64,000 nucleotides of DNA, taken from positions 384,001-448,000 of the forward strand of contig OZ241362.1 of assembly GCA_965200315.1 (NCBI GenBank), written 5' to 3'. This stretch comes from Candidatus Latescibacterota bacterium. Its GTDB lineage: Bacteria > Latescibacterota > UBA2968 > UBA8231. Below the pieces are notes generated by a model. That model was not told the origin of the DNA. It saw nothing but the letters and a program-made list of their open reading frames with translations, and did not search any database. Below are positions 9,116 to 54,060 of this stretch, in pieces (positions within the stretch are counted from its first letter, which is position 1; every line of letters begins with the position of its first letter). The position numbers and the translations under genes were made by a program.

Positions 9116-10276
9116 GTGCGACGCTACGCGCTGATCGAAGAGAAAGTAGCCGCGATTCCGGCGGCCGAGCTTGCGGTCGAACAGGCCCTACACCTGCACA
9201 CCCAATATGCAAAAGAGTTGGAGTTCGGCTTCCCTAGCCCGCTCAATGGCCAGTGTTATCAACTCAGATCGCGGGGGTATGTCGGCGTGGTGCCATTGGG
9301 CGCGGATGCCGCCTTGGAAATCAATCCCAAAATCCGCTGCTCACTGCTCATGTCCATGCTGGAGTACGCCTATCAGTTGCCCAAGGTAAGCGAATACAAG
9401 GCCCCAGCTACTATGGGGGATATTTACGAGTTTTGGGCCGAGGTACTCGCACGCAAAGTCTTGCAACGGGTGCGGCGCGGGCTGTTTTGGGATTACCAAA
9501 CCCGCGAAGGCCCCAGTCGGTGGGTGCGGGGGCGCATGTACCCCGAGCGCAGTGCCTTGGGCGTTCATCCCTACTGTCGGTTTGCCGAGCACACGCCCGA
9601 TATCATCGACAACCGCATCTTGGCCAACGCGCTGCATGGCCTGCGGCGCTTTGCCTTTCGCCGCGAAAGCGTTCAGCAAATGGTCGGTCGGGCTTGGTGG
9701 GCACTGAGCGAGCTAAATTACCGCCACATTCGCCCCGCCGATTGTCTCGGCGTAGTGTACCACCAACTAAACGAGGACTACCGACCGATGCATGCCCTGT
9801 GCTATCCCTTGCTCCAACAGCGCAGTCCGGCTTGGGGAGTAGGGGCCGAGGAAGGGCCGGCGTACTTGTTGCACATGCCGACCTTATTCGAGCGGTTTTG
9901 CACGGCGTTTATCGACCACAAGCTCAATCACAGGGTGGAACTAAAAGCCCAGTACCACACGCGACTCAAGGGAACAGAGCGGCTTTCCTTTCGCTTGGAC
10001 ATGGCCCTGTTTTCAGCGGCAACCGGGCAGCCGCTGGCGGTAGTTGATGCAAAATACAAGGCCGCTGGTCCCGTAGAAAGCGATGTGCAGCAGGTGGTTG
10101 CCTATGCGGTGCAACTAGGTACGCGCCGGGCCTTTTTGCTCTATCCCAGCCGCGATATAAGCGAGCAGTTCGAGGTCGGCCCGGTGGCCGTGCAAGCACT
10201 TGGGTACGATCTCGACGCCGAAGATCTAGAGGAAGCGGGACGGCGCGTGATTCGCAAAATAGAAAACAGCATATAA
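9116..10276 (+). CDS. mcrC: McrC-family PD-(D/E)xK nuclease subunit
   Basis: GTG 2 nt after the mcrB stop; YVGVV, INPKI, MPTLFERF, RLD...VVDAKYK, DVQQVVAY, LLYP. Confidence 0.88.
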   Translation: MRRYALIEEKVAAIPAAELAVEQALHLHTQYAKELEFGFPSPLNGQCYQLRSRGYVGVVPLGADAALEINPKIRCSLLMSMLEYAYQLPKVSEYKAPATMGDIYEFWAEVLARKVLQRVRRGLFWDYQTREGPSRWVRGRMYPERSALGVHPYCRFAEHTPDIIDNRILANALHGLRRFAFRRESVQQMVGRAWWALSELNYRHIRPADCLGVVYHQLNEDYRPMHALCYPLLQQRSPAWGVGAEEGPAYLLHMPTLFERFCTAFIDHKLNHRVELKAQYHTRLKGTERLSFRLDMALFSAATGQPLAVVDAKYKAAGPVESDVQQVVAYAVQLGTRRAFLLYPSRDISEQFEVGPVAVQALGYDLDAEDLEEAGRRVIRKIENSI

Positions 10277-10292
10277 AAATTAATATGTAAAC
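10266..10292 (+). other. dif-like site 1: ACAGCATATAA-AAATTA-ATATGTAAAC
   Basis: dif-type arm/6 bp/arm layout; the TAA of the left arm is the mcrC stop codon; the most degenerate of the six. Confidence 0.6.
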
Positions 10293-10308
10293 AAAATAAA
10301 CAAAAAAT

Positions 10309-11562
10309 TTAAGACTCAACAAGAAACAAACTCAAATCAGCCCAGTAGGTAATCACGACTAAGCAGGCCAACAAAATCAACAGAAAAGGCAAGGAGACGC
10401 GGTAGAGCCGGTGTACGGGCTGTTCAAAGCGAATGCTGGCAATGAAGAGGTTGAGGCCAACTGGCGGCGTTGAGTAGCCGATTTCCAAATTGGTCAAAAA
10501 AATGATCCCAAGGTGAATGGGATGCACGTCGTATGCTGCGGCAATGGGCAGGATCAGGGGCACGACGATGAGGAGGGCGGAGAACATGTCGATCATACAG
10601 CCAACCGCTAGCAGAAATACATTGAGGAGAATCAAAAACAGTAGGCGGCTGCTAATGTGGGTCTCTATATAGGTGAGCAAGCGCGTTGGAATTTCCGCAT
10701 CAATGAGGTAATTGGTATAGGCCATGGCGGCAGCCAAGACGACGAAAATGCCGCCGACGAGTACCATGCTATCGCAGATGATCTTCGGCAGTTGCCTAAT
10801 GGAGATCTCGCGGCGAATTAGCACCACCACCACCAAAGCGTACAGGGTGCTCAAGGCCGCGGCTTCGCTGACGGCGATTATGCCCCCGTAGATCCCCCCG
10901 AAGATCACCACTGGCAACAGAAGCTCCCAACTACACGCGGCAAAGGCCTGCGGCAATTGACGCCATCCGGTGGGGTGCTCAGGCGCGGTATTGCGCCGGC
11001 CTTGGAACAGGCTGTAGCAAGACAGGGCTCCTACTAGGAGCAAGCCGGGGACGATGCCTGCAATAAAAAGCTGATCTATCGGCGTCTCGGATACGATGCC
11101 GTAAATGATGAGCGGCAGGCTCGGCGGAAAGAGCAATCCCAAGCTGCCCGAGGTGGTAATCAGCCCGAGGGAAAACGAATCGGGTAGGCGCTGTTGTCGC
11201 AGAGCGGGCAACAGCAACCCACCGAGCGCGACAATCGTCATCCCCGACGCCCCGGTCAAAGCCGTGAAGAGGGCACAGACGATAATGGCCACAATGGCCA
11301 GACCCCCCGGCAGCCAGCCGAGCAAAGCTTGGGAGAAGCGCACCAGCCGGGCTGGTGCGCCGCTTTCGGCAAGGAGAAAACCCGTGAGGGCAAAGAGCGG
11401 AATAGCCGTTAAGGTGGGCGTTTCGGCTATCCGGTACATCTCGATAAAGACGACGGTTAAATCGATCTCGGCGAGGGAGAAGTGCAAAATGGCCATCGCG
11501 CTGATGACCACAAAGAGCGGGACGCCGGCTAGGGTGGCTAGGGCGGCTAGGAGACTGCTCAC
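10309..11562 (-). CDS. dctM: TRAP transporter large permease DctM
   Basis: LTAIPLFAL, SGSLGLLFPPSL, NLEIGYSTPPVGLNLF; GTG start overlaps the dctQ stop (GTGA). Confidence 0.92.
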   Translation of the reverse strand: MSSLLAALATLAGVPLFVVISAMAILHFSLAEIDLTVVFIEMYRIAETPTLTAIPLFALTGFLLAESGAPARLVRFSQALLGWLPGGLAIVAIIVCALFTALTGASGMTIVALGGLLLPALRQQRLPDSFSLGLITTSGSLGLLFPPSLPLIIYGIVSETPIDQLFIAGIVPGLLLVGALSCYSLFQGRRNTAPEHPTGWRQLPQAFAACSWELLLPVVIFGGIYGGIIAVSEAAALSTLYALVVVVLIRREISIRQLPKIICDSMVLVGGIFVVLAAAMAYTNYLIDAEIPTRLLTYIETHISSRLLFLILLNVFLLAVGCMIDMFSALLIVVPLILPIAAAYDVHPIHLGIIFLTNLEIGYSTPPVGLNLFIASIRFEQPVHRLYRVSLPFLLILLACLVVITYWADLSLFLVES

Positions 11563-12035
11563 GGGCGAGCTGCCGGCGTACGAAGGCGACGCACGCCCTG
11601 CAAGAGGAAGCGCAGTGCCATCAAGCCAAAGACGAGGGGAAAGCACAGTTGGACGATCCAAGCGGGGATGGCAAAGAAAGCCATCGTGCCGAATGCGCGT
11701 TCGTCGAGCACGAAGTGCCCAGCGATATAGGATAGATAGGAGCAAAGCGCGGCGGCAAAAAAGTCCGCGCAGCTCAAGACGATGGCTCTCACCCGGGTAG
11801 GTAACAGGCGCAACGCAGCGTCAATGCGGATGTGTTTGTCGAGCCGGGTGGCTACCAAAGCGCCAGCCAGTCCAATCCACAACACGAGGTGCCGGACGAG
11901 GCTTTCAGTGCCCAGGAAGGTGATGGAGAATAGATTGCGCACGAGAATCTGCCCGCAGGTCAGCACCAGCAGGCAGACGACCAAAAGGACGAGAAAGCCG
12001 GTCTCGAGGCGGTGGAGGATGGGCTGGCCGCTCAA
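11559..12035 (-). CDS. dctQ: TRAP transporter small permease DctQ
   Basis: Four TM segments, HIRID motif, operon position. Confidence 0.88.
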   Translation of the reverse strand: MSGQPILHRLETGFLVLLVVCLLVLTCGQILVRNLFSITFLGTESLVRHLVLWIGLAGALVATRLDKHIRIDAALRLLPTRVRAIVLSCADFFAAALCSYLSYIAGHFVLDERAFGTMAFFAIPAWIVQLCFPLVFGLMALRFLLQGVRRLRTPAARP

Positions 12036-13892: not shown

Positions 13893-13920
13893 TCGGACCC
13901 AAGGGATTGACTAAGAGAGT

Positions 13921-15720: not shown

Positions 15721-16740
15721 ATGAGCGTTTTTTCGCGTTTTTTTTCGCATGAAATAGGTATAGACTTGGGCACTGCCAATACTTTGGTGTATGTCAAAGG
15801 CAAGGGAATCGTCCTCAACGAACCCTCGGTTGTCGCCCGCCAAGTCTCTACCCAAAAAGTTATTGCTGTCGGCGCAGAGGCCAAGGAAATGATGGGGCGC
15901 GAAAACGCTGGGATCCAAATAATTCGCCCTTTAAAAGACGGCGTTATCGCCGATTTTGAAGTTACCGAAGAGATGATTCGCAGCTTTATCCGCAAAGTAA
16001 AAAAGAACAAACTTTTCGTGCGGCCCAAGATCGTGGTAGCGGTCCCGGCAGGCAGCACTGAAGTAGAAAAACGGGCCGTGCGAAACTCCTGCGAGCGCGT
16101 GGGGGCTAGAGAAGTCCATCTGGTCAGCGAGCCGATGGCCGCGGCTATCGGCATGGGATTGCCAGTTCATCAAGCCGTCGGCTCAATGGTTATCGATATT
16201 GGTGGCGGGACGACAGAGGTTGCCGTAATTGCCCTTTCAGGTCTAGTCGAACACGAGTCGCTGCGGGTGGCCGGGGAAGCTATGGATCAGTCAATTTCCG
16301 AGTGGATGCGCAGAAAGCACAGCCTGCTTATTGGCGTCCAAGGTGCCGAGAACATCAAGTGGAAAATCGGGTCGGCGAAGGAATTGGGAACAGAAGAGAG
16401 TATGCCGGTGCGTGGTCGCGACACCGTAGCCGGGCTACCCAGAGTCATGCAAGTAGATTCAGTTGAGATACGAGAAGCCCTATCCGATTCCGTAGCTCAA
16501 ATTGTCGCCAGCGTGCGCCGAGTATTGGAGAGGATGCCGCCCGAATTGGCGGCAGATATCCTCGATAGGGGCATGGTACTCTGCGGTGGTGGGAGCATGC
16601 TGCAAGGGCTGAGGGAACACCTGCTTGAGGCGACGGATTTGCCTACGTATGTCGATAGTGAAGATCCCCTCTCGGCCGTGGTGCGGGGCAATGCCCGCAT
16701 TCTCGAAGAGTTTGATAACTACCGCCAAGTTTTGCTCTAA
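15721..16740 (+). CDS. mreB: Rod shape-determining actin MreB
   Basis: IGIDLGTANT, RPLKDGVIAD, DIGGGTTEVA. Confidence 0.97.
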   Translation: MSVFSRFFSHEIGIDLGTANTLVYVKGKGIVLNEPSVVARQVSTQKVIAVGAEAKEMMGRENAGIQIIRPLKDGVIADFEVTEEMIRSFIRKVKKNKLFVRPKIVVAVPAGSTEVEKRAVRNSCERVGAREVHLVSEPMAAAIGMGLPVHQAVGSMVIDIGGGTTEVAVIALSGLVEHESLRVAGEAMDQSISEWMRRKHSLLIGVQGAENIKWKIGSAKELGTEESMPVRGRDTVAGLPRVMQVDSVEIREALSDSVAQIVASVRRVLERMPPELAADILDRGMVLCGGGSMLQGLREHLLEATDLPTYVDSEDPLSAVVRGNARILEEFDNYRQVLL

Positions 16741-27384: not shown

Positions 27385-27546
27385 ATGCCAAGTAAACTGA
27401 GTATTTTCTTTGAGTTATGGGATTTTATGAAGGTGCGCAAAAAGTGGTGGTTGGGGCCGATCTTTGCCACTTTGATTTTGTTGGGGTTGTTAATAGTCAC
27501 GACTCAAGGGTCGGCGGTGGCCCCCTTTATTTACGCACTGTTTTAA
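27385..27546 (+). CDS. Small membrane protein (DUF5989-like), 53 aa, absent from the ORF track
   Basis: MPSKLSIFFELWDFMKVRKKWWLGPI...GSAVAPFIYALF. Confidence 0.85.
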   Translation: MPSKLSIFFELWDFMKVRKKWWLGPIFATLILLGLLIVTTQGSAVAPFIYALF

Positions 27547-27571
27547 GTCCTATAACATGTTATATGTAAAA
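27545..27571 (+). other. dif-like site 2: AAGTCCTATAA-CATGTT-ATATGTAAAA
   Basis: Fills the whole gap between the small ORF stop and the apt ATG; close to Firmicutes-type dif arms. Confidence 0.75.
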
Positions 27572-28083
27572 TGAATCTAAAAAAACTCATCCGCGAAATT
27601 CCCAATTTTCCGCAAGACGGCGTCTCCTACAAAGACATCACGCCGCTGCTCAAAGACCCGGCTGGTTTATCGGCCGCGGTCCAAACTATGCTCGCACCCT
27701 TTGTGGACGCCGACGTGGACCTAGTCGTCGGTATAGAGGCCCGCGGATTCGTGTTCGCAACGCCCATGGCACTCGAATTAGGATGCGGTTTTGTGCCAGT
27801 GCGCAAATTAGGCAAGCTACCGGCGGCCACGCTGCGCCGCGCTTACGCCCTCGAATACGGCGAAACAGCCTTAGAAATCCACGCCGATGCCATCACGCCT
27901 GGGCAAAGGGTGTTAGTCGTCGACGACGTTTTGGCCACCGGCGGGACCTTGGCGGCAACAGGTCAAGTGCTTAAAGAACTAGGAGCGGTTGTCGTGGGCA
28001 TCAGCGTGTTGGCCGAGTTGGGCTTTCTGTCAGGCCGCAGCCTCTTGGCCGGGTATAAATTGGAAAGTGCTATCGTCTATTGA
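27571..28083 (+). CDS. apt: Adenine phosphoribosyltransferase
   Basis: GIEARGF, RKLGKLP, YALEYG, VDDVLATGGT. Confidence 0.96.
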   Translation: MNLKKLIREIPNFPQDGVSYKDITPLLKDPAGLSAAVQTMLAPFVDADVDLVVGIEARGFVFATPMALELGCGFVPVRKLGKLPAATLRRAYALEYGETALEIHADAITPGQRVLVVDDVLATGGTLAATGQVLKELGAVVVGISVLAELGFLSGRSLLAGYKLESAIVY

Positions 28084-31381: not shown

Positions 31382-32315
31382 ACTGACCATTAAGAATTTG
31401 CTCGCCACCTACGGGCAGCAACTGCGGTTGAAGCTGATCGCCGGTGTTGAGGGCCTACAGCGGACCATCAACAACAGCGACATCCATCGCCCCGGCTTGG
31501 CTCTAACGGGTTTTGTCGAGCTGTTCACTTTGGATCAGGTACAGCTCTTGGGCAATACAGAAGCAGAATACTTGTGCACCTTGTCCGCATACGAGCGGCG
31601 GCAGGCGCTCAAAATCATATATCAATTTGATATTCCATGCGTGGTTTGGACCGGTAGGGGATGCATGTTTCCCGAGTTGCGACAGCTCGCCGATGAGTGC
31701 GCAGTACCACTGCTGGAGTCTGGATTCAACACGGCCGAATTCACTCATCTCATCCGTTTTTACCTCGACGAGGTGTTAGCACCCCAAGTGTCCATGCACG
31801 GGACGCTGGTCGATATCTCTGGGGTAGGGTTGCTTTTTCGCGGTCGCAGTGGTATTGGCAAAAGCGAGGTCGCCTTGGATTTGGTCGAGCGCGGACATCG
31901 GTTGGTGGCCGACGATGTGGTCATCATCAATCGCAAACCCCAAGGCATTTTGGTAGGCTGTAGCTCGGAAATGCTCCAAGACCACATCGAGATTCGCGGC
32001 ATCGGCATCCTAGATGTAAAAAAGATGTTTGGTGCGTGGAGGACTCGGCGGCAGAAGCGGGTGGAGGTAGTGGTTAACCTCGTCGATTGGGACGAAAAAT
32101 ACGCCTACGAACGACTTGGCCTTGAAGACAATAAGGTGGTAATTCTCGGTGTCGAGGTGCCTGAGGTCTTCATCCCGCTGTTTCCCGGCAAAAATATCAC
32201 GGTACTCGCCGAGACCATAGCGATAAGTTATCTCTTGCGCTTGGACGGTGAGTATGCGGCACGGACATTTAGCGATCGGCTCCAAGAGCGGATTAAGGCG
32301 GGCAAAAAACCATGA
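31374..32315 (+). CDS. hprK: HPr kinase/phosphorylase
   Basis: IHRPGLAL, GRSGIGKSE, HRLVADD, IEIRGIGI. Confidence 0.96.
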   Translation: MSELTIKNLLATYGQQLRLKLIAGVEGLQRTINNSDIHRPGLALTGFVELFTLDQVQLLGNTEAEYLCTLSAYERRQALKIIYQFDIPCVVWTGRGCMFPELRQLADECAVPLLESGFNTAEFTHLIRFYLDEVLAPQVSMHGTLVDISGVGLLFRGRSGIGKSEVALDLVERGHRLVADDVVIINRKPQGILVGCSSEMLQDHIEIRGIGILDVKKMFGAWRTRRQKRVEVVVNLVDWDEKYAYERLGLEDNKVVILGVEVPEVFIPLFPGKNITVLAETIAISYLLRLDGEYAARTFSDRLQERIKAGKKP

Positions 32316-33115
32316 TGACGCTTGGCGTGGCAGGCCATGATCACGAGATCGTCGCCCATCGGGATGCCTTGCGGGGTTGCCGCGATATCCAGCTTGTACA
32401 CGAAGCCGACTGTGCCGCAGTCTTGGAACAAAAAATAGATGGGCTGGTGTTGTTGCACGTGGAAGATAAATCGCATTGGATCGGCGCGGCCCTAGCAGCC
32501 GGTCTGCACGTTATGGCGACCCATCCGGTACAGGTGTCGAGCCCTTCCAAGGTGTGTGTGCTGTCCTTGGGGAGGCATACGCACTTTTGCTCGGCTTTAG
32601 CCGCTCGACGGGGCGTAGCGCATTATTCACTGGAACTTTCTTTTAATTCGGCTTTATTCGATCCTATTGATCGCGAGACGATCTGCAACCAAGCGGCCTT
32701 GGACGTATGCGACCTGTTGCTGAGTACGTGGGGGCCGGTAGATGTGCTGTACAGCAGGATGCGCAACTTCTTTCATCTTGGTCGGATGGAGGACGTGTCG
32801 GTCGCGCTGCTGAGGATGCGCAACGGCGTCGAAGGCTCGGTTGCGATCCTAGACTTTCCGGCTGTGGCTCCGACGTTGTGCATCCGCGCATACGCACAAG
32901 ACGCAATAATTGATACTTCTTGGCCTTGGGTATGGGAAGCGGGCGATCTGGCGGCGTACTATCGCAATTTTGTCGCCTGCATCCAAGGGCGCGCCCAGCC
33001 ATTGTTGCGTTTAGAGCAGGTGGCCGCAAGCTATCGTCTTTTGGAATGGATGCGCACATCGGCGAGACAAGATGTTATTTTGAACCGCAAGCAAGTAAAA
33101 CAATATGTCTTATAA
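32312..33115 (+). CDS. Divergent Gfo/Idh/MocA-like oxidoreductase-fold protein
   Basis: AALAAGLHV, EDVSVALLRMRNGVEG, FVACIQG; lacks the usual GxG and EKP motifs. Confidence 0.55.
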   Translation: MMTLGVAGHDHEIVAHRDALRGCRDIQLVHEADCAAVLEQKIDGLVLLHVEDKSHWIGAALAAGLHVMATHPVQVSSPSKVCVLSLGRHTHFCSALAARRGVAHYSLELSFNSALFDPIDRETICNQAALDVCDLLLSTWGPVDVLYSRMRNFFHLGRMEDVSVALLRMRNGVEGSVAILDFPAVAPTLCIRAYAQDAIIDTSWPWVWEAGDLAAYYRNFVACIQGRAQPLLRLEQVAASYRLLEWMRTSARQDVILNRKQVKQYVL

Positions 33116-33131
33116 AATTTTTTATGTAAAT
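33105..33131 (+). other. dif-like site 3: ATGTCTTATAA-AATTTT-TTATGTAAAT
   Basis: The left-arm TAA is the upstream gene's stop codon; identical to the reverse complement of 36629-36655. Confidence 0.85.
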
Positions 33132-33136
33132 GAAAA

Positions 33137-33661
33137 ATGAAAGAACAATCAACGCAACCCACGTACTTCGCTCTTGCGCTAGCATTCTTCTTATTGGCGA
33201 TCGTGTTGCTGTTCAACATGCTGGGTCCTATGGCCGTGCCGGTTACTAGGGAACAGTTCGATCAGATACAAGAGGCCAATCTCATCGAGTATCTGATCGT
33301 GCAACCCCAAGGATTTACTTGGCAGCTTGCAAGAGCCGTCCGTGTCCAAGGTGCCAACGGCGAGACGGTAGCCAAGCGGATTGAGCTAGCCGAGCCGGAC
33401 CCAACCGTGGCCGAAGATTGGCGACAAAAGGGGGGCGCAGTGCGTCAAGAGCAAGATACCTCGTGGTGGGGAGGTGCGGTCTTCATGGCCTTGTTGCTCG
33501 GCGTGGGGGGATGGCACATCTGGTCCCAAATACGACTGGATATCAAAGGGGGAGGAGGGCCACGCCGCCGCTTGCGCGACTTGGAAGCCGCGCTCAAACA
33601 AGGCAAAATTACCCAAGCCGAATTCCGGCAGCAGGCCGAACGGCTCTGGGCCGAGTTGTGA
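33137..33661 (+). CDS. Two-TM membrane protein (FtsH N-terminus-like layout) with a SHOCT-like tail
   Basis: Two hydrophobic helices; C-terminal LKQGKITQAEF. Confidence 0.65.
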   Translation: MKEQSTQPTYFALALAFFLLAIVLLFNMLGPMAVPVTREQFDQIQEANLIEYLIVQPQGFTWQLARAVRVQGANGETVAKRIELAEPDPTVAEDWRQKGGAVRQEQDTSWWGGAVFMALLLGVGGWHIWSQIRLDIKGGGGPRRRLRDLEAALKQGKITQAEFRQQAERLWAEL

Positions 33662-33667
33662 GGATAT

Positions 33668-35458
33668 ATGGCGAGTACTATTCGCGTTCTCGACGAAAGT
33701 CTCATTGGAAAAATAGCCGCTGGCGAGGTGGTGGAACGGCCCGCTTCGGTCGTGAAGGAATTGGTCGAAAACTCGATTGATGCGGGGGCCACTAAAATCT
33801 GCGTGGAAATCAGGGCCGGTGGCAAGCAGTCGGTCGTCGTGACCGACGATGGCTCGGGCATGAACAGAGAGGATATCGCGCTGTGTGTATGCCGTCATGC
33901 CACGAGCAAAATGGCTTCAGTGGCCGATCTGTTTCGCATTCAGACGCTGGGGTTTCGCGGCGAAGCCTTAGCCAGCATTGGTGCGGTAGCGCACTTGGCT
34001 ATTGAATCGCGTACAGAGCAAGACGAAACCGGGACGCGCTTGGTTATAGAAGGCGGCATAGAGCGAGAGATGCACAGCATCGGCCGAGCGCGTGGTACGA
34101 CCATTGTGGTAAAGAACCTGTTTTTTAATACGCCAGCGCGGCGCAAGTTCCTCCGCTCGGTCAATGCGGAAGCTCGCCACGTGGCGCAGACCATCATCCA
34201 TCTAGCCGCTGGTTATCCGGCTCTTGGTTTTGAACTAGAGCACCAAGATCGCCAAGTATTGAACTACGCCCCGGCGTCTCGTCGGGAACGGGCGGCCGAG
34301 CTGTTGGGCATCCAGACTGCTCCAGCCGACGAGTTGTTGGATCTCGCCCACGAGGAGGAGGGCCTCAAAATCGAAGGGGTCTTAGCCGGTCCCGAACACT
34401 GCGGCCGGAGCAAGGGCAAGCAGTATCTCATCGTACAAGGACGGCCCATCTCTTCGCGGCTGATGGCTACCGCTGTACAGCGGTGCTTTGAAGGTTTACT
34501 ACCCGAAGGACATCATCCAGTATTCATGCTCTGGATCGATATGGATCCCAAGAAAATCGACGTCAATGTCCATCCGACGAAGCGGGAGATTCGCTTGTCC
34601 AACGAAGGGCAAGTCATCGCGGCTATTGAGAGCAGCGTCCGGCATACCTTGCGCCTGCCCGATGTCCGATCCTTCGTCTATACTGCGGCCCCAAGGCCGG
34701 ACAGCACACCTCGCTTCAGCGAGACCAGCAGTGCTGCGGGCGTCGAGCCGGTTTCGGTGCGCGTGGGCGAATCGGCGGCACCGGTATTGCAAAGATTGCC
34801 TACGCCCGAAGCGCCCGAGTCAGCAGTTCATGCAAACGACCAACTCAATATGGCCCTCGTCGCTCCAGCCTCAGTCAAAGTCGCTGTCGCCGAAGATGCT
34901 GCGATGTGGCAGATCCACAACCAGTACATCCTCGTCGAGGTAGCCGATGGATTGCTCTTTGTCGACCAGCAGGCGGCGCACGAACGCATCAACTACGATC
35001 GGGCCATGGCGCAAGTGGACGGCGCGGCCAGTGAGAGCCAGCAGTTGCTCTTTCCCATACAGCTAGAAATGGGCGCAGAAGATTTCGAGATCTTCAACCA
35101 AGTGCGAGATGATATTACCAAGCTAGGCTTTGTCGCGCGCGATTTTGGTGCGCGGACGGTGTTGGTGGAAGCTGTGCCCGCTGAATTAGATCGCTTTGGT
35201 GAAGGCAATGCTTTTTATCAGCTATTGAACGATGTGCGCGATGGCCAGCATTCGGGCCGCTCTTGGCGCGAAGCACTCGTCTTGGCTTATGCGCGCAAGG
35301 CGAGCATTAAGAAAGGGCAGAAACTGAACGCCGAGGAAATAGCGCACTTGATCAACGAATTGCTAAAGGCCGACTCACCGCACGTAAGCCCAACGGACAA
35401 GCCGATCATGGCGAGGATGAAGTTGAGCGATATGGAGCGTCTATTGCGGAAGTTCTAG
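33668..35458 (+). CDS. mutL: DNA mismatch repair protein MutL
   Basis: IAAGEVVERPASVVKELVENSIDAG, GFRGEALASI, DVNVHPTK. Confidence 0.97.
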   Translation: MASTIRVLDESLIGKIAAGEVVERPASVVKELVENSIDAGATKICVEIRAGGKQSVVVTDDGSGMNREDIALCVCRHATSKMASVADLFRIQTLGFRGEALASIGAVAHLAIESRTEQDETGTRLVIEGGIEREMHSIGRARGTTIVVKNLFFNTPARRKFLRSVNAEARHVAQTIIHLAAGYPALGFELEHQDRQVLNYAPASRRERAAELLGIQTAPADELLDLAHEEEGLKIEGVLAGPEHCGRSKGKQYLIVQGRPISSRLMATAVQRCFEGLLPEGHHPVFMLWIDMDPKKIDVNVHPTKREIRLSNEGQVIAAIESSVRHTLRLPDVRSFVYTAAPRPDSTPRFSETSSAAGVEPVSVRVGESAAPVLQRLPTPEAPESAVHANDQLNMALVAPASVKVAVAEDAAMWQIHNQYILVEVADGLLFVDQQAAHERINYDRAMAQVDGAASESQQLLFPIQLEMGAEDFEIFNQVRDDITKLGFVARDFGARTVLVEAVPAELDRFGEGNAFYQLLNDVRDGQHSGRSWREALVLAYARKASIKKGQKLNAEEIAHLINELLKADSPHVSPTDKPIMARMKLSDMERLLRKF

Positions 35459-35482
35459 TGTTTGGACACCTGATGATCAGGA

Positions 35483-35514
35483 ATACTAACGATAACAGGC
35501 ATTATCGTTAGTAT
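35483..35514. repeat. Perfect inverted repeat ATACTAACGATAA-CAGGCA-TTATCGTTAGTAT; likely tyrosine-recombinase core site
   Basis: 13-bp perfect arms with a 6-bp spacer, 120 bp upstream of a tyrosine recombinase. Confidence 0.85.
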
Positions 35515-35634
35515 AACAAGTGTGCTACACAGCGGGCAAAATGCTGCGATGTTCGCTATATTTTTTCTTAGCCACTGTTAAGAACATCCCGGATATTTAG
35601 TCATCAGACCTTTAGCCCCTGTGAGCATATTCAG

Positions 35635-36609
35635 ATGAGCCGCGCACTCACTCCAGTCGTCCGCCAACTAACGCCAACACCAGCGTTGATGGCGGACGAT
35701 CCTCTGGAACAATTTCTCAGCGGTCAGCTCAGCGAGCGTACGCGACGTGCGTATTACGCCGATCTCCAGCATTTCTTTTTATCCATCGGCCTAGAACTAA
35801 ATGAAGTGTCGCTCGCTGTCTTGCAGTCAATCACCTTTGAGCACGTGGTCGCCTTTAGAAACCAGCTCGCCAGCGAAGGCTACAAGCGCAGCAGCATCAA
35901 CAGAAAGTTGTCCAGCCTGAAGTCGTTGTTCAAGATGTTGGTCGCCTTGGGCCACATTGAGAAGAATCCCGCCGACTCTACGTTGGTGCGCGGCTACAAG
36001 GTTGATGAAACGCTGGCTGGCAAAGCACTTTCCAATCAGGTGCTGAATAAGATTCAGCAAGCCATTGCCGAGGAAAAAGACGATTTGGTTCGTACGCGCG
36101 ATGCGGCCATGTTTCATTTGCTCACATTCGGCGGGCTGCGCCGCTCTGAAGTGGCAGGCGTCGCTTGGGAAGATATATCCTTGGAGGGCGTCTTTTACAT
36201 CCTGCACCTGCCCCAGACTAAATCGGGCGTGGTGCAGGAGATCAAACTGCAAAACATCGTCTTACATCATCTCGAACTGTACAAACAACAACTACAGGTG
36301 GCGGGCTTGCCGGCGACCGGCAAAGTCTTTATCAGCTTGTCGCGCAACCAATCTCGCGGCCGGCCGCTGACCGACCAATCGGTAAATCACATCGTCAAGA
36401 AATACGCCCTGCGCGCAGGCCTCCCCCAAAACGTCACTGCACACATGTTCCGCCACACATGCTGCACCCTAGCGATTGAAGGCGGAGCCAAGCCCCAGCA
36501 GGTGCAAGCCCATTTGCGCCACAAGGATCTAAAGACGACGATGCGCTACTACGAAAACCGCGAGAGGCTGCTCGATAATGCGTCTGATTATATTAGGATT
36601 GGTAGTTGA
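35635..36609 (+). CDS. Tyrosine recombinase (Xer-like, SAM-like plus catalytic domain)
   Basis: TRRAY..DL, SINRKLSSLKS, GLRRSE, TKSG, HMFRH, LRH, TTMRY: complete R-K-H-R-H-Y set. Confidence 0.95.
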   Translation: MSRALTPVVRQLTPTPALMADDPLEQFLSGQLSERTRRAYYADLQHFFLSIGLELNEVSLAVLQSITFEHVVAFRNQLASEGYKRSSINRKLSSLKSLFKMLVALGHIEKNPADSTLVRGYKVDETLAGKALSNQVLNKIQQAIAEEKDDLVRTRDAAMFHLLTFGGLRRSEVAGVAWEDISLEGVFYILHLPQTKSGVVQEIKLQNIVLHHLELYKQQLQVAGLPATGKVFISLSRNQSRGRPLTDQSVNHIVKKYALRAGLPQNVTAHMFRHTCCTLAIEGGAKPQQVQAHLRHKDLKTTMRYYENRERLLDNASDYIRIGS

Positions 36610-36628
36610 GTGTTTTTTGTTGTGTTTT

Positions 36629-36655
36629 ATTTACATAAAAAATTTTATAAGACAT
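36629..36655 (-). other. dif-like site 4: ATGTCTTATAA-AATTTT-TTATGTAAAT (minus strand)
   Basis: 27/27 identical inverted copy of site 3; lies between the convergent recombinase and leuS stops. Confidence 0.85.
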
Positions 36656-36681: not shown

Positions 36682-39564
36682 TTACACCACGATATTAACA
36701 ATTTTATCCGGCACCCATATAAAGCGCTTTATTGCCGTTTCATCGGCCACGTATTTCTGGATGCTCTCCATATCGAGTACCAAGGACTTGATTGCGTCCT
36801 CGGCGGTGCTGACGGGCACTTTGACTTGTCCGCGCATTTTGCCGTTGACCTGAATGGGGACTACGATCAGGTCCTCAGCGGCCTTGGCTGCATCCCAGTC
36901 AGGCCAACTCTGGCGACTAAGCTCTCCCCTCCCCAAGCCCGCCAGTTCCCAGATCTCCTCGGCAATATGCGGAGCAAAGGGCACCAGCAGGATCAAAAAC
37001 GGCTTAGCAACCGCCTGCGGTACTTCGTCTAAAGACACCAACTGGTTGTTTAACTCGATCAAGGCGGCAATCGCCGTATTAAACCGCAACCCCTCTATGT
37101 CCTCAGCTACCTTTTGGATGGTTTGGTGCAGCTTTCTTTCTAGGTCAGGTCCCAACACCGCGCTCGCCCCTATCTTCACGCGCCGGTCCGAATCGACAAA
37201 GTTGCGCCAAACGCGCTGCAAGAAGCGCTGCATCCCGCGAATGCCTTCCATGCTCCACGGAGCACTCGCTTCGAGTGGCCCCATGTACATTTCGTATAGC
37301 CGCAGGGTATCCACGCCAAATTCCTCGCCAATTTCTTCGGGCGGCAACCCATTTTTGTAGCGCTTGCCCATTTTGCCGAAAGACTGGCGTAGCACCTTCC
37401 CCGTCCCCTTTTCAACAGGCTCCCCATCGCGGAATTCGACCTCGCGGATGTCGATATACACACCGCGCTCGTCCTGAAAGGCATCCGCGGTCATCATGCC
37501 TTGGTTGAACAACTTCTTAAACGGCTCAGGCGTGGATACGTGGCCCAAGTCGTAGAGGGCCTTGTGCCAAAACCGAGCGTAGAGCAAGTGCAATACCGCG
37601 TGTTCAGCACCGCCGATGTAGAGATCAACGGGCATGAAGTAGCTCTCTTTGGCCGGGTCGCAGAAGGCTTCTTCGTTGTGCGGATCGATAAAGCGGAGAT
37701 AATACCAGCAAGAACCGGCCCATTGGGGCATGACGTTGAGTTCGCGCCGGCAGGCCACTCCGTCAATTTCCACTGTCGTCCACTCTGTTCCGGCCCGGTG
37801 CAACGGCGGTGCAACGGGTTGGGTGGGATCGTCAGAGGTTTCCGGTCTGAAATCCTCTAAGTCCGGCAGCGCCACCGGAGGCACCACCGCGACGGAATAT
37901 CCATCGGGGTGCGTGGCCAGTGGAAAGGGCTCGCCCCAATAGCGCTGCCGAGCAAAGGTCCAGTCGCGCAATTTGTAGTTTACCGCGGCTTGGCCACGCC
38001 CTTGGGAGACTAGTACGGCGACGATCTGAGCTTTGGCCGCGCCCGTTGCCAAGCCGTTAATGGCGTATGGATTATCTCCGCCCCGTACTGGAGAATTGAT
38101 CGCAGTTCCCTCCCCGGCATACCACTCCTCGGCCCTTCCCTCCCCTCCAGTAACTACCTTCACAATGTCTACGTTATAGGTGGCGGCAAAGGCGAAATCG
38201 CGCTCGTCGTGGGCCGGCACCGCCATAATGGCACCCGCGCCATAGTCCATGCTGACGTAGTCGGCGACGAAAATGGGAATTTTTTGTCCGTTGACTGGAT
38301 TGCGGGCATAGATGCCGGAGAAAATGCCCGTTTTTTCCTTGGTTTCATCCGCTGTGGAGACGGCAACCTGAGCTACGTATTGGGCTACCGCTTCCCGGAT
38401 GGATTCCCCGCCTCCCTTCCACTGCTCCGGCGTTCCGTCGGGCCAGACGCTGGGCACTAAGTAGGCTTCCCCGGCGGGATCCACCAGCGGATGCTGAGGG
38501 GCAATCGCCATAAAGGTCGCTCCGAAAAGCGTGTCGGGCCGGGTCGTGAACACGGGCAATTGCCCAGCGACCGCGTCGCTTTGCGGGTCAAGGACATCGA
38601 AGCACACTTCAGCTCCTTCGCTGCGGCCGATCCAGTTGCGCTGCATCCGTTTGATAGGCTCTGGCCAATCGAGACGAAAGGGCGCGCCGTTGCGGTCCTC
38701 CAGCTCAAAGTCCAAGTCCTCTAAGAGCCGCTCGGCGTAAGCTGTTATGCGCATCGTCCATTGTCGCAGTGGTTTGCGATACACGGGAAAATCGCCCCGC
38801 TCGCTGCGGCCTTCGCTGTTTACCTCCTCGTTGGCCAATACAGTGCCCAAGCCCGGGCACCAGTTGACGACGGCCTCTTGCTGGTACGCTAGTCGGTAGT
38901 TGTTTAACACAGCTTGCTGCTGGGCCGTGGTTAGTGCAGACCAAGCTGCATCGGTGCTGAGCACTTGGCAATCTGCGGCCGACAGGGCCCTGCCAGCCGC
39001 AAATTGGGCCTCTAAGTCGGCGATGGGCTTGGCTCGTCCCTTTATTTGGCGTCCATTGCCGTCTTCCCAGAGCTCGTCTGCGTCGAAATAGCTGTCGAAT
39101 AGCTGGGCAAAAATCCACTGAGTCCAGCGGTAGTATGACTCCCGCGACGTGACCACTTCGCGGCCCCAATCAAACGAGAGTCCAAGAAACTGCAATTGGC
39201 TGCGCATCGCAGCGATATTCTGCTCTGTTACAGCCGCTGGATGGATGTTGTGTTCGATCGCGTATTGCTCGGCCGGCAATCCGAAACTGTCGAACCCCAT
39301 CGGATGCAGGACGTTAAATCCCTGCATCCTTTTGTAGCGGCTGTAGATGTCGCTGGCGATATACCCTTTGGGATGGCCGATGTGTAGCCCGGCGCCGCTG
39401 GGATAGGGAAACATATCGAGGATGTAGCACTTGGGTTTGCGGTCGTCGAAACCAACCTCCCCCGGCCCCAGCGTTTGATAGGTTTTCTCCTGCTCCCAAT
39501 GGGACCGCCATTTGGTTTCGATGTCTTGGAAATTGTATTGGTCTTTTTTTTGTTTTGTTGACAT
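36682..39564 (-). CDS. leuS: Leucyl-tRNA synthetase
   Basis: MFPYPSGAGLHIGH, FTTRPDT, GGAEHAVLHLLY, KMGK. Confidence 0.98.
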   Translation of the reverse strand: MSTKQKKDQYNFQDIETKWRSHWEQEKTYQTLGPGEVGFDDRKPKCYILDMFPYPSGAGLHIGHPKGYIASDIYSRYKRMQGFNVLHPMGFDSFGLPAEQYAIEHNIHPAAVTEQNIAAMRSQLQFLGLSFDWGREVVTSRESYYRWTQWIFAQLFDSYFDADELWEDGNGRQIKGRAKPIADLEAQFAAGRALSAADCQVLSTDAAWSALTTAQQQAVLNNYRLAYQQEAVVNWCPGLGTVLANEEVNSEGRSERGDFPVYRKPLRQWTMRITAYAERLLEDLDFELEDRNGAPFRLDWPEPIKRMQRNWIGRSEGAEVCFDVLDPQSDAVAGQLPVFTTRPDTLFGATFMAIAPQHPLVDPAGEAYLVPSVWPDGTPEQWKGGGESIREAVAQYVAQVAVSTADETKEKTGIFSGIYARNPVNGQKIPIFVADYVSMDYGAGAIMAVPAHDERDFAFAATYNVDIVKVVTGGEGRAEEWYAGEGTAINSPVRGGDNPYAINGLATGAAKAQIVAVLVSQGRGQAAVNYKLRDWTFARQRYWGEPFPLATHPDGYSVAVVPPVALPDLEDFRPETSDDPTQPVAPPLHRAGTEWTTVEIDGVACRRELNVMPQWAGSCWYYLRFIDPHNEEAFCDPAKESYFMPVDLYIGGAEHAVLHLLYARFWHKALYDLGHVSTPEPFKKLFNQGMMTADAFQDERGVYIDIREVEFRDGEPVEKGTGKVLRQSFGKMGKRYKNGLPPEEIGEEFGVDTLRLYEMYMGPLEASAPWSMEGIRGMQRFLQRVWRNFVDSDRRVKIGASAVLGPDLERKLHQTIQKVAEDIEGLRFNTAIAALIELNNQLVSLDEVPQAVAKPFLILLVPFAPHIAEEIWELAGLGRGELSRQSWPDWDAAKAAEDLIVVPIQVNGKMRGQVKVPVSTAEDAIKSLVLDMESIQKYVADETAIKRFIWVPDKIVNIVV

Positions 39565-39583
39565 AATTATCCTTATAAGACAC
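39557..39583 (-). other. dif-like site 5: GTGTCTTATAA-GGATAA-TTATGTCAAC
   Basis: Begins immediately after the asnS stop; the leuS ATG lies inside the right arm. Confidence 0.8.
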
Positions 39584-49115: not shown

Positions 49116-49138
49116 GTTTTTTGCTCGACCTTCACTAC

Positions 49139-49591: not shown

Positions 49592-49609
49592 ACGCGCTTT
49601 CCCTTTAAC

Positions 49610-49633
49610 AAAAAAGCGGGCTATAATGCCCGC
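49610..49633 (-). promoter_or_regulatory. rimP-leader-type GGGC/GCCC hairpin terminator
   Basis: Minus strand reads GCGGGC-ATTATA-GCCCGC-TTTTTT directly upstream of rimP-nusA-infB. Confidence 0.7.
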
Positions 49634-49711
49634 GCCAATTTGAAGATTATAAAATATGGGATTGTATTGATTTAGGCAAGACGACTTAACAGCCTTGGTC
49701 AAAGGCCAACG

Positions 49712-50135
49712 CTAGAGGAGACGCAGAATCGCACGCAGTTCTTTTTTAGTCTCTTCGATCATTCTGAATGCAGCCTCCCGGACTTGTGCAGATTTGGGGT
49801 CTGGCTGCTTCACTATTGAATCAGGATTGCTCTGTTGTTCAGCGAGCAAAGCAGATGCTTGCTCGCCAACCTGACGCAGGAGTTGGGGGTCGTCTTTGAG
49901 TTTCTTCTTTACGCCTTGCGTCGTATAGTGCTCCTCGTAGAGGAGGCGTTTGAGCAATAGGATGATTCCTATATCGCGCACTCTATAGGCCCTGTTTTTG
50001 CCACCGTACGCGCGACGCGGCCGCAAACAGGAGAACTCCTTTTCCCACGCCCTGAGCGTATAGGGTTGCAGCTGTGTGAGTTCTGCAACTTCGCTGATGC
50101 TGTAATACAGCTTGTTTTGCAATGGATTTTTCACG
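49712..50135 (-). CDS. MerR-family HTH regulator
   Basis: KLYYSISEVA...YTLRAWEKEF..LRP...NRAY. Confidence 0.88.
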
Positions 50136-51486: not shown

Positions 51487-52841
51487 TTTTCACGCCCTAT
51501 GTAGTAACCCAACTCGGTTAGCTGCCGTCCCTCTCCTTGTACTCTCACGCTCTGCTCAGTCCAAAGGCGCTCGAGTGATTCGACCAAGTCGTACCCCCCT
51601 ACCGCAAGGGGGACGCCAGTCTCTTCCGCCAGTTGCGGCACGGTCATGTCGTCCAGTGTCAAACCCTCACCATTGACGCAATTGGGCGGCAGCAAGACCA
51701 AATCCCGCTCGATTCCGTCGCGCACTCTCGCCGCCATATCGCGTCCGGTCAGCAGGCCCGACACCGTGATACCGCGGCCGAAAAAGTCGTTATCTACCGG
51801 CAGGAGATCGATCTGTACGTTCTCGATGGCATTCAGCCTAGCCACTAGCGGCACGAGGATTCGCTCGGCCAAGCGCCCAGTCAGCAGGCCAATCCGCATG
51901 GCCTCGGTCGTGCGCGTCGGCAACCGCTTGCTGGCCTCGTCCCAAGTGCCGAGGAAGGAACGAACCATGCCGATGCCGTTTTCTAGCTGGGGAAACGCAT
52001 CGTAATACGACGCCTCTGGCACGGGCCGACCCGTCAGCAGAAAGAGCTCGTCGGCCGCATAGACGAACCGCTCGCCAAAGCGCGCTTTGAATTGCGAGCC
52101 CCACGCTTCGGCGGCGGCCGCGTACTCAGCGGCCTTGGCCGGGGTCACTGGGTCGAGCTGGACGAGCTGGCGCCGATGATCGGTCAGCCCCACGGGCACT
52201 AGTGCCACCGAACGAACCGCGGGATAGTACGCAGACAAATCGTCCACTGTGCGCTCTAGATGCGGTCCATCATTCCATCTTGGGCACAGCACGACTTGGG
52301 TGTGCATTTCAATGCCGTTGGCGGCCAGTTTGCGCAAGCGCTCGTTGATATCGACGGTCGCTTTTGTGCGCCCGAGCATGATTTGCCTCAGTTCGGGGTC
52401 GGTCGCGTGGACGGAGATGTATTGCGGCGTTAGCCCCTGTTCAATGATGCGGTCGATATCGCTTTCGCGGACATTGGTCAGGGTCACGTACGAGCCATGG
52501 AGAAAGGAGAGCCGAAAATCGTCGTCTTCAAAATACAGGCTGCGCCGCATGCCCTTGGGCATTTGATGGATAAAGCAGAAGACGCATTGGTTGTTGCAAC
52601 TGCGCAAGCGCATATCCTCGAAGACCAGCCCTAAGGACTCGCCGCTCTGGCGCACAATTTCGGCCTCGTACCGTTCTTTGTCGCGCTCGATTTCTACGCA
52701 GATTACCTCTTCGGCGCTGTTGACCTGCACATCGATCAAATCGCGCACTTCTTCGCCATTAATGCGCAAAATGCGATCGCCGATGCAAAATCCCGCGCGC
52801 GCACCGAGGCTATCGGGTTCAATTTGTTTTATGACAACCAT
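51483..52841 (-). CDS. PDZ + DUF512 radical-SAM-like Fe-S protein
   Basis: CNNQCVFCFIHQMP, DDDFRLSFL.GSY.TLTN, PQLENGIG. Confidence 0.9.
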   Translation of the reverse strand: MVVIKQIEPDSLGARAGFCIGDRILRINGEEVRDLIDVQVNSAEEVICVEIERDKERYEAEIVRQSGESLGLVFEDMRLRSCNNQCVFCFIHQMPKGMRRSLYFEDDDFRLSFLHGSYVTLTNVRESDIDRIIEQGLTPQYISVHATDPELRQIMLGRTKATVDINERLRKLAANGIEMHTQVVLCPRWNDGPHLERTVDDLSAYYPAVRSVALVPVGLTDHRRQLVQLDPVTPAKAAEYAAAAEAWGSQFKARFGERFVYAADELFLLTGRPVPEASYYDAFPQLENGIGMVRSFLGTWDEASKRLPTRTTEAMRIGLLTGRLAERILVPLVARLNAIENVQIDLLPVDNDFFGRGITVSGLLTGRDMAARVRDGIERDLVLLPPNCVNGEGLTLDDMTVPQLAEETGVPLAVGGYDLVESLERLWTEQSVRVQGEGRQLTELGYYIGREK

Positions 52842-52938
52842 AGTGAATCAAGCAATTAATCTACGTATCGTAGTGTGGGGCAAGACGTTTTATCGGTAAA
52901 GTATATGGATATTGCGCCGACGGCAATACCTTAAAAAT

Positions 52939-52972
52939 AAAAAATCCGCCCGACCCAGTGGGTTAGGCGGAT
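52939..52972 (-). terminator. Terminator after tRNA-Gly
   Basis: ATCCGCC...GGCGGAT followed by TTTTT on the minus strand. Confidence 0.7.
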
Positions 52973-52975
52973 AGA

Positions 52976-53050
52976 TGGAGCGGGAGACGGGAATCGAACC
53001 CGCGACATCAAGCTTGGGAAGCTTGCGTTCTACCCCTGAACTACTCCCGC
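52976..53050 (-). tRNA. tRNA-Gly(CCC)
   Basis: GCGGGAG acceptor stem; anticodon arm CAAGC-TTCCCAA-GCTTG; GGTTCGATTCC; CCA. Confidence 0.95.
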
Positions 53051-53090
53051 TAATTTTTGTGCATAAGGTACGTCGAGGCCCCAACCGCTG

Positions 53091-54041
53091 TCAACTCGCC
53101 CCACTATCCCATCGATGCTCCCACTCGCCGACGATGCGCTCGACGACGCCCGCCTTTCCCCATACGTCGAGGTCCAACTCGCGCAGGCGGCGGTCGCGGC
53201 GGCACCACGTTGTTTGCCGTTTGGCCAAATGTCGGGTGCGCTGTTTGGTCTGTTCGATGGCTTCCTGCCAAGGGCAATGCCCGGCCAGTGCGCTGCACAT
53301 TTCGAGATAGCCCAAAGTCCCCAAGGCGCTGTCGCTTGGATCGTAGCCCATTTCGCACAAGGAGCGGACTTCCTCGACCCATCCCCGCTCGACCATCTGT
53401 TCGACTCGCTGGTCAATTCGCTCGTAGAGCCGGCTGCGCGCCATGGTCAGACTGATCATTTGCGGCTGACTCACAAGGGGCTGTCCCTTGCGCTCCCGCC
53501 AGAGCTTGCTGAGCGTGCCCTTTCCGGCCAGTCCCACCTCCAATGCCCGTAGGATTCGCTGCGCATCACTCGGCGGCAAACGCGCTTGCGCGACCGGATC
53601 GCGACGACCCAATTCCTCGTACAGGGATGCAAGCCCCTCGCCGTGCAGGCGATGTTGCAATTCGGCGCGGATTGGCGCGTATTCAGTTTCATCCTCAAAG
53701 CATCCGTCTAAAGCACTCTGCCAGTACAAACCCGTCCCTCCTACCAAGACGGGCAGGCACCCTCTGTTCCAGATCTGCTCAATGACGCGCCGCGCGGCTC
53801 GGGCATACGCTCCGGCGCTGTAGTTTTCCTCGGGACCAAGTACGTCAAGCAGGTGATGGGGACATTGGTTCTGCTGTTCAGCGGTTGGCTTGGCCGTGCC
53901 AATATCCATGTAGCGGTAGATTTGCCGCGAGTCGGCCGAGATGATTTCCACTTTGGGCAAGTGCCGGGCTACTTCGAGGGCTATTTCTGTTTTGCCGGTG
54001 GCGGTGGGTCCGGTGATTAGGAGGAGAGGTTTGGTTGACAT
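53091..54041 (-). CDS. miaA: tRNA dimethylallyltransferase
   Basis: GPTATGKT, SADSRQIYRYMDIGTAKP, VGGTGLY, AKRQTTW; likely ATG at 54041 (MSTKP). Confidence 0.96.
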   Translation of the reverse strand: MSTKPLLLITGPTATGKTEIALEVARHLPKVEIISADSRQIYRYMDIGTAKPTAEQQNQCPHHLLDVLGPEENYSAGAYARAARRVIEQIWNRGCLPVLVGGTGLYWQSALDGCFEDETEYAPIRAELQHRLHGEGLASLYEELGRRDPVAQARLPPSDAQRILRALEVGLAGKGTLSKLWRERKGQPLVSQPQMISLTMARSRLYERIDQRVEQMVERGWVEEVRSLCEMGYDPSDSALGTLGYLEMCSALAGHCPWQEAIEQTKQRTRHLAKRQTTWCRRDRRLRELDLDVWGKAGVVERIVGEWEHRWDSGAS

Positions 54042-54060
54042 ATTAAAAATTATAGGACTA
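54034..54060 (-). other. dif-like site 6: TAGTCCTATAA-TTTTTA-ATATGTCAAC
   Basis: Starts with the rqcH TAG stop; the probable miaA ATG lies inside the right arm. Confidence 0.8.

Follow-up and report, generated by a model that had tools for sequence, protein, structure and literature searches.

By the textbook rule, a bacterial chromosome carries one dif site, and extra recombination-competent copies are expected to be dangerous. Dif-like sites of the kind named XDS are reportedly able to unload SMC, as papers citing Karaboja et al. 2021 relate. The present analysis concerns a stretch of 64,000 nucleotides (the window) from Candidatus Latescibacterota bacterium (GenBank assembly GCA_965200315.1, contig OZ241362.1, positions 384,001 to 448,000), in which six dif-like sites of 27 bases each are arranged in two opposed triplets around the gene of a divergent Xer-family tyrosine recombinase. 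We consider it likely that these are genuine, recombination-competent Xer sites, that they form a convergent array at the replication terminus, and that cross-terminus exchanges between them appear as nested, harmless inversions. The array had been noticed in an earlier reading of the sequence (the original prediction), in which a terminus-organising set of binding sites and a nested rearrangement system were offered as two possible readings.

The XerC/XerD–dif system (Escherichia coli; CodV/RipX in Bacillus subtilis) resembles the array in its 11-6-11 type of site with partly palindromic inner arms; the array, too, lies at a GC-skew switch approximately opposite to dnaA, in a genome that encodes XerD, an XerC-like protein and an FtsK with a gamma domain. 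The array differs in having six sites in two opposed triplets instead of one, which departs from the one-site-per-chromosome pattern, in the inverted inner pair that brackets a third Xer paralogue, and in the inversions between its sites. In the terminus region of B. subtilis and Staphylococcus aureus, XerD-bound dif-like sites unload Smc-ScpAB (PMC9226527, PMC11840125, PMC11894783). An XDS is made up of a full XerD arm and just the five innermost bases opposite, and acts without XerC (PMC9226527). Several dif-like sites in the terminus region and the presence of SMC are common to both systems; the sites of the array, however, keep both arms and, on the comparative evidence given below, recombine, whereas XDS are half sites (PMC9226527). 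In the XerS/difSL system of streptococci and lactococci and in XerH/difH, the recombinase gene adjoins its presumed site, as it does here and at 19 of 28 loci from more distant relatives. As far as these systems are described in the material available, they differ from the array in that XerD and the XerC-like protein are encoded elsewhere in the window genome and have not been replaced, and in that an inverted pair of sites with an ordinary 6-base spacer surrounds the gene.

The nearest described case in the literature accessible to us is Lactobacillus delbrueckii ssp. bulgaricus, which has two inverted dif sites at the terminus, where exchange would invert rather than resolve; the second dif is described as a passenger of a 47.5 kb inverted duplication and as an accident headed for decay (PMC5345009). 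In the present genus, by contrast, the repetition is confined to the 27-base sites, which are conserved genus-wide and, as a pair, over families. The Tus/Ter and RTP/Ter fork traps (see also PMC8347550) share with the array two opposed polar groups of sites that flank the terminus and, close to the innermost of them, a gene for the site-binding protein (a putative one in the case of the array). Neither the sites nor the protein of the array are related in family to those of the traps, however; the array's sites recombine, and the genome contains no recognisable homologue of Tus or RTP. In the pdif modules of Acinetobacter plasmids, many XerC/D-type sites bound inverted or shuffled DNA modules (PMC5790767, PMC13141974). 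Those modules are plasmid-borne and hold accessory or resistance genes, unlike the array, which is situated at a chromosomal terminus among essential genes in fixed order. In the accessible portions of the Xer/dif and Latescibacterota literature, no description was found of a convergent multi-dif array or of inverted dif sites on either side of a xer gene.

Six Sites at the Replication Terminus

All six sites consist of an outer arm (11 bases), a spacer (6 bases) and an inner arm (10 bases). Three are on the forward strand: site 1, the outermost on the left (10266..10292; ACAGCATATAA-AAATTA-ATATGTAAAC), site 2 (27545..27571; AAGTCCTATAA-CATGTT-ATATGTAAAA) and site 3 (33105..33131; ATGTCTTATAA-AATTTT-TTATGTAAAT), which forms the left end of an inner cassette. 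The other three are on the reverse strand: site 4 at the right end of the cassette (36629..36655), the sequence of which is that of site 3, inverted, followed by site 5 (39557..39583; GTGTCTTATAA-GGATAA-TTATGTCAAC) and by site 6, the outermost on the right (54034..54060; TAGTCCTATAA-TTTTTA-ATATGTCAAC). Layout, coordinates and strands were read exactly as the original prediction had them, and its statement that only the inner pair (sites 3 and 4) has a common spacer is correct for the window genome.

The sites were searched for with the core motif TATAA-N6-WTATGTMAA. Six matches were obtained in the window even when one mismatch was allowed, against 0.00 expected from 100 dinucleotide-preserving shuffles, and the whole genome (5,359,245 bases, single contig) contains exactly six matches, all of them inside the window. 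With a weight matrix (spacer ignored), the six sites scored 30.2–34.5 bits and the next-best place in the genome 19.5 bits, with nothing in the gap; because the matrix was built from the sites themselves, it is circular for the six but not for the gap below them. By simple arithmetic, the chance that five further sites fall within one given 44 kb span of the genome is about 4×10⁻¹¹. Neither uniform spread through the genome nor occurrence at chance frequency, each of which would have spoken against an array, was thus found.

The cumulative GC skew reaches its global maximum at position 419,551 of the genome, which is position 35,551 of the window, between mutL (ending at 35458) and the recombinase gene (starting at 35635); to the left of this point the skew stays positive over about 1 Mb, and to the right negative over about 2 Mb. 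The dnaA gene (genome positions 2,961,689–2,963,029) is separated from the maximum by 47% of the contig in one direction and by 53% in the other, and gene directions converge at approximately 36.6 kb of the window. On account of the skew maximum, the near-opposite dnaA and the converging genes, the array is located at the replication terminus. The switch from three forward sites to three reverse sites brackets the skew maximum, and all of the arms called “XerD-type” in the original prediction point inward. The convergence on the recombinase locus that it had described was thereby confirmed, also by the genome-wide matrix scan, in which these six sites, clustered and convergent at the maximum, stood apart from every other place.

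The skew is irregular between about 2.6 and 4.7 Mb, with several changes of sign, and its cumulative minimum, at 4,174,487, is well removed from dnaA (2.96 Mb); this suggests that the chromosome has been rearranged, or has taken up foreign DNA, on this side. When strand-skewed 8-mers were scanned for (KOPS-like polarity), the result was dominated by a CRISPR array outside the window, in which about 246 copies of a 37-base repeat lie on one strand within the first 500 kb of the contig.

Conservation in the Genus and Anatomy of the Sites

The relatives compared, which were found by means of the recombinase protein, are metagenome-assembled genomes of Candidatus Latescibacterota, some of which are labelled Gemmatimonadota; the metagenome runs of the window species are from sponges. 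With the strict core, sites were found in all 18 sampled genomes of the genus, mostly four to six of them, convergent and clustered in about 45 kb, and none were matched there by a reversed control pattern; when the core was relaxed slightly, 30 of 30 genus genomes had sites, in most cases three forward and three reverse ones. Genes and sites were then mapped in 21 arrays, namely that of the window and whole arrays from 20 further genomes. (Genomes, numbered G, and loci, numbered L, overlap in part, and their counts were not summed.) Inversions aside, gene order is identical in 21/21 arrays. Sites 1, 2, 3 and 5 are present in every array, site 4 in 19 (G009 is without it, and in G001 its spacer is 7 bases long), and site 6 in 19 (absent in G007 and G041). 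The outer arm of site 4 is damaged in G005 and G039. The cassette may be locked in one orientation in the four lineages in which site 4 is missing or altered (G009, G001, G005 and G039).

The anatomy of the sites was taken from 120 sites of the 21 arrays (at most one mismatch). The arms are near-invariant and the spacer is free; the inner halves, TATAA and TTATG, are invariant or nearly so. Positions of the outer arm that were not required by the search are conserved as well: A at position 1 in 97 sites, G at position 3 in 109, T at position 4 in 93, C at position 5 in 116 and T at position 7 in 110. As judged from these sequences, conserved arms around a free spacer are the pattern of a two-armed recombinase site and not of a half site. 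An identity with the XDS, which the original prediction had named among the known kinds of multiple dif-like sites, does not agree with this conservation (93–116 of 120 at the five outer-arm positions), as far as XDS are described in the accessible text of PMC9226527.

Identical spacers within one genome occur in 12 pairs, against a mean of 5.4 expected from shuffling of the spacers between genomes, each site class taken separately (P ≈ 0.003). For the inner pair, identity was observed in 5 of 21 genomes (1.8 expected, P ≈ 0.018), with four different spacer sequences, and in G042 sites 1, 2 and 3 have one common spacer. Such sharing fits occasional exchange or conversion among sites.

Some weaker matches were also recorded. 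A look-alike at approximately 15772–15798 (forward strand; GTATGTCAAA), at the start of the open reading frame (ORF) 15721–16740, has AATAC in place of TATAA and is kept in 9 of 21 arrays; it is situated inside a coding region, is probably conserved as coding sequence, and is not counted as a seventh site. Genus g15 of the same family (G062, G064, G066 and G068) has four to six matches to the looser pattern, some of them a few kb apart on one strand, and the reversed control pattern also matches in some of these genomes; g15 may be a second lineage with arrays.

Inversions between the Sites

The inner cassette (33132..36628, 3.5 kb) holds a gene for a membrane protein of 174 amino acids (33137–33661, forward strand), mutL (33668–35458, forward strand) and the divergent recombinase gene (35635..36609, forward strand); the skew maximum at 35551 is within it. 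Two hydrophobic helices are predicted for the membrane protein, which has no Pfam match above the curated cut-off and no NCBIfam match. For comparison of locus states the recombinase gene was set to the forward strand; the window state then reads left genes, site, membrane-protein gene, mutL, xer, site, and leuS on the opposite strand. The cassette has this orientation in the window and at 14 further loci of the genus, and the other orientation, between the same flanks, at 10 loci. The nucleotide alignments to the window break at 33,10x–33,15x and at 36,60x–36,66x, thus, to within one repeat width, at sites 3 and 4; the check for coincidence of synteny breakpoints with sites, proposed together with the original prediction, came out positive for the cassette.

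The history of these states was read from a maximum-likelihood tree of leuS, a gene that is not part of the cassette. Its 24 rows comprise the window, 22 genus loci and one outgroup; L015, L032 and L033, which are without leuS, were left out. At least five independent changes of orientation are forced by the starred branches, and three sister pairs with 100/100 support differ in cassette state. In all three, spacer and inner arm go with the cassette and the flank changes, which hints at an exchange at the junction of outer arm and spacer.

A segment that is bounded by inverted repeats, is found both ways among species and encodes a tyrosine recombinase is an invertible element, as are Fim-type switches and shufflons, and an expression switch might be suspected. 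By such a switch, flipping would place the membrane-protein, mutL and recombinase genes behind the left operon or that of leuS and would change the level of MutL, so that a mutator switch would result; that mutL is inside the segment in this genus is in keeping with it. Several observations speak against it, however. The cassette is co-directional with the genes upstream in either orientation, so that nothing is obviously switched; promoter-like sites are not in excess (7 found, 7.0 expected); and the arms preserve stop and start codons, which leaves no switch of a promoter or of a coding end. In more distant relatives the bracketed segment is the recombinase gene alone. Contigs from four runs of the window species have one orientation, and sites 1, 2, 5 and 6 would be left unexplained. 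An expression switch is therefore regarded as quite improbable.

The outermost sites have recombined in one relative. In G009 the genes outside site 1 and those outside site 6 are swapped and the order between them is unchanged, which corresponds to inversion of a block of 44 kb. At the junction beside dctM, the outer arm of site 6 with its flank (the TAG stop codon of the NFACT-family gene) is joined to the inner arm of site 1 with its flank; at the junction beside miaA, the outer arm of site 1 with its flank is followed by the inner arm of site 6 and the start of miaA. Read from these two junctions, the exchange is reciprocal and took place inside the 27-base sites. Homologous recombination is unlikely here, since sites 1 and 6 share merely 5–6 contiguous bases. 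On the grounds of their unlike spacers, the original prediction had favoured binding rather than recombination at the outer four sites. This was contradicted for sites 1 and 6 by the reciprocal exchange in G009; a recombinant of sites 2 and 5 was found in 0/21 arrays. With at least five flips at the inner pair and an exchange of the outermost pair in one relative, it is the second of the two readings offered, the nested rearrangement system, that gained support.

Gene Context of the Sites

The genes between the sites are housekeeping genes, as had been stated beforehand and as the gene annotation agrees: phosphoribosyl pyrophosphate (PRPP) synthetase, RsgA, HPr kinase, MutL, leucyl-tRNA synthetase (LeuRS, gene leuS), aspartyl/asparaginyl-tRNA synthetase (Asp/AsnRS), PNPase, TruB, IF-2, NusA, MiaA and ValRS. 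The sites fit closely between them. The TAA in the outer arm of site 1 is the stop codon of a McrBC-like ORF (9008–10276), and that in the outer arm of site 3 is the stop codon of ORF 32312–33115. Site 2 ends on the A of the start codon (ATG) with which a phosphoribosyltransferase gene (27571–28083) begins. Site 4 is situated 20 bases beyond the stop codon of the recombinase gene and 27 bases beyond that of leuS, and both site 1 and site 4 are placed between convergent genes. Site 5 occupies the 19-base gap from the stop codon of the Asp/AsnRS gene to leuS, and the ATG in its inner arm is the first ATG of the leuS frame. In site 6, the first three bases (TAG) are the stop codon of the NFACT-family gene (54058–55755), and the inner arm has an ATG (54041) in the reading frame of miaA. 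The spacer of site 5 (39567–39572, reverse strand) is GG-rich in 21/21 arrays (GGATAA and the variants GGATTA, GGATGA, GGTTAA, GGGTAA, GGAGTT and GGATTT), and the other spacers are not conserved. It resembles a ribosome-binding site at the position expected for leuS, which would explain its conservation.

This context invites the explanation that the sites are transcription or translation signals or RNA motifs, the orientation of which is set by gene direction, and that the flips arise from RecA-dependent homologous recombination at short inverted repeats. All six sites run in the direction of local transcription, a start codon adjoins or falls within four of them, three include the stop codon with which the preceding gene ends, and the spacer of site 5 has the ribosome-binding-site likeness just mentioned. 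The motif, however, is found nowhere else among several thousand genes, sites 1 and 4 are between convergent genes, and conserved arms with a free spacer are the pattern of a recombinase site. The sequences available for homologous pairing are short: the G009 exchange joined sites with 5–6 contiguous bases in common, and the spacers of the inner pair differ in many genomes, which leaves identities of 10–11 bases only. We regard this explanation as very improbable. A genome-wide promoter motif or leaderless-mRNA signal, suspected because sites 2, 3, 5 and 6 abut start codons, was likewise discarded, as the genome has no further copy of the core and no more promoter-like matches than chance would give.

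Elements that integrate at dif leave additional dif-like sites behind. The six sites might accordingly be scars of mobile elements that integrated at dif via Xer (IMEX-like), each of them leaving one additional site. Integration of this kind gives direct repeats, however, and not convergent triplets; the DNA between the sites consists of housekeeping genes in fixed order in 21/21 arrays; and leuS already adjoins the recombinase gene in distant relatives that are without site 5. On the grounds of gene content and fixed gene order, this explanation was rejected, and we give it hardly any credence.

Recombinases, Terminus Proteins and More Distant Relatives

The genome encodes four tyrosine recombinases. 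XerD scored 346.9 bits (cut-off 329.6), and an XerC-like protein scored 316.6 bits, which is below the equivalog cut-off (335.15) and above the subfamily cut-off; the fourth recombinase is weak on Xer models (best 57 bits). The third is the Xer-family protein encoded in the cassette (324 amino acids). It reached just 128.8 bits on the XerC model and falls far short of the XerC and XerD equivalog cut-offs; its nearest solved relative by sequence is E. coli XerD. In an alignment, R169, K204, H270, R273, H296 and Y305 are common to it and to the XerC and XerD of the genome, so that the catalytic set is intact. Of 18 genus genomes, 17 encode an orthologue (78–95% identity), the remaining one being 58% complete. 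None was found in 12 genomes from two other families of the class, which have one or two dif-like sites and XerC/D-level matches only. The third Xer thus accompanies the multi-site state. One FtsK with a gamma domain (98.8 bits) and one SMC are also encoded, and no match to PF05472 or PF02334 (Tus and RTP) was obtained in this genome, which is 94.7% complete.

In more distant relatives, 28 loci with a recombinase 58–78% identical to the third Xer were inspected. At 19 of these a dif-like site is located just past the gene, on the opposite strand, and at 8 of the 19 a second, inverted site lies at most about 730 bases upstream, so that the pair brackets the recombinase gene alone. One complete genome of 5.9 Mb has only the two sites that bracket the recombinase gene. 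At locus L037 the recombinase gene alone is reversed relative to mutL and the Asp/AsnRS gene; leuS is missing there as well, and the case is less clean. The linkage of recombinase and site holds across families, and from its distribution the inverted pair around the recombinase gene looks older than the six-site array. As regards other genes and sites of these relatives, the 174-residue gene, which precedes mutL in the genus, has relatives of 31–51% identity at several of the more distant loci. Genomes of family f2 (L003, L006 and L010) have, besides their main dif-like site, another conserved sequence of this type, TATAAG-N-ATATGTCAACCTC, at a distance of hundreds of kb; no window gene adjoins this second sequence.

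The inventory of terminus proteins bears on the possibility that the outer sites, or all six, are maintained for binding only, as in a terminus organiser of the XDS type: they would have been selected as landing pads for Xer proteins in SMC unloading, as a stop for FtsK or as a polar fork block, and the inversions would be accidents. SMC and FtsK are both present, precedents for SMC unloading by XerD-bound dif-like sites are available from B. subtilis and S. aureus (see the Introduction for sources), and without a Tus or RTP homologue another terminus system could serve. The six places are, moreover, kept across the genus although the inversions have no evident benefit. The anatomy, however, is at odds with an XDS, in which only the innermost five bases of the second arm are kept; in the array, conservation extends over the entire second arm. 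A reciprocal exchange between sites 1 and 6 and at least five flips at the inner pair are further objections. In E. coli, finally, FtsK stops at XerCD–dif from either side (79% versus 83%), so that polarity would be irrelevant to it, as far as the accessible text of PMC2800217 goes. For the same reason a polar FtsK trap was dropped as the principal explanation. Taken with these objections, a purely binding role for the sites is judged unlikely.

Proposed Mechanism

The convergent array of recombination-competent sites would operate as follows. A tyrosine recombinase would bind the two arms of 10–11 bases and exchange strands across the 6-base spacer; the acting enzyme may be the canonical XerC/XerD pair, the divergent third Xer, or both. 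Each site on the left is inverted relative to each site on the right, and any cross-terminus exchange would therefore yield an inversion centred on the terminus. Such an inversion would keep genes co-directional with replication and sites pointing inward, and would be tolerated, whereas a wrongly oriented site would yield deletions or one-sided inversions. The inner pair may be the dimer-resolution locus (dif) of the clade, because the inverted pair around the recombinase gene is all that the more distant relatives have. The outer four sites would be kept for a function that requires several polar Xer-bound sites near the terminus, with the inversions as a by-product. Since all six places are retained in spite of the lack of an evident benefit from inversion, the outer sites are probably selected for something that needs several bound sites, be it back-up resolution, a barrier or unloading.

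A number of observations weigh against this account. The evidence for recombination is all comparative. Sites on the same side of the terminus are direct repeats, between which active recombination would delete essential genes, and the model therefore needs activity that is low, gated or restricted. The exchange of sites 1 and 6 occurs in a single one of the 21 arrays, and a product of sites 2 and 5 was seen neither in these arrays nor at the loci scored for orientation. All six sites are co-oriented with local transcription, so that polarity alone does not distinguish a role in DNA from one in RNA. The spacer test is weakened by the kinship of the genomes. In the sister pair L013/L014, of opposite cassette state, a C is found at outer-arm position 6 of the site beside the 174-residue gene; it has moved together with the cassette instead of remaining with the flank, which is not predicted by a crossover inside the spacer. 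Four public runs of the window species (X2, X3, X4 and X18, out of 20 listed) contained the window orientation only and no strand-changing joint; they were searched as contigs, which drop minority forms, and the result says nothing against rare flips.

As a tentative and considerably less probable alternative, the array could be an Xer-derived polar terminus trap, in which the third Xer, alone or together with XerC/XerD, would occupy the six inward sites and, depending on orientation, hold up or unload SMC, FtsK or replication forks. Such a trap would be a functional analogue of Tus/Ter or XDS built from recombination-competent dif sites, with the gene of the binder central in an invertible cassette, and the inverted dif pair around the recombinase gene would be the ancestral state of the clade.

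Conclusions

The single-copy rule for dif is broken in this group: six sites are retained throughout a genus, and in a wider clade the gene of a third Xer is enclosed by an inverted pair. If the convergent array of recombination-competent sites is read correctly, it suggests a design rule by which convergent polarity would make every cross-terminus exchange a harmless inversion centred on the terminus. The array would be a natural system for the study of how Xer activity is restrained at direct repeats on the same side, of the role of the third Xer paralogue, and of terminus organisation by dif-like sites (SMC, FtsK and forks) outside the Firmicutes. Short, site-specific inversions at the terminus also emerge as a recurrent source of structural variation in uncultured symbionts, one that touches mutL.

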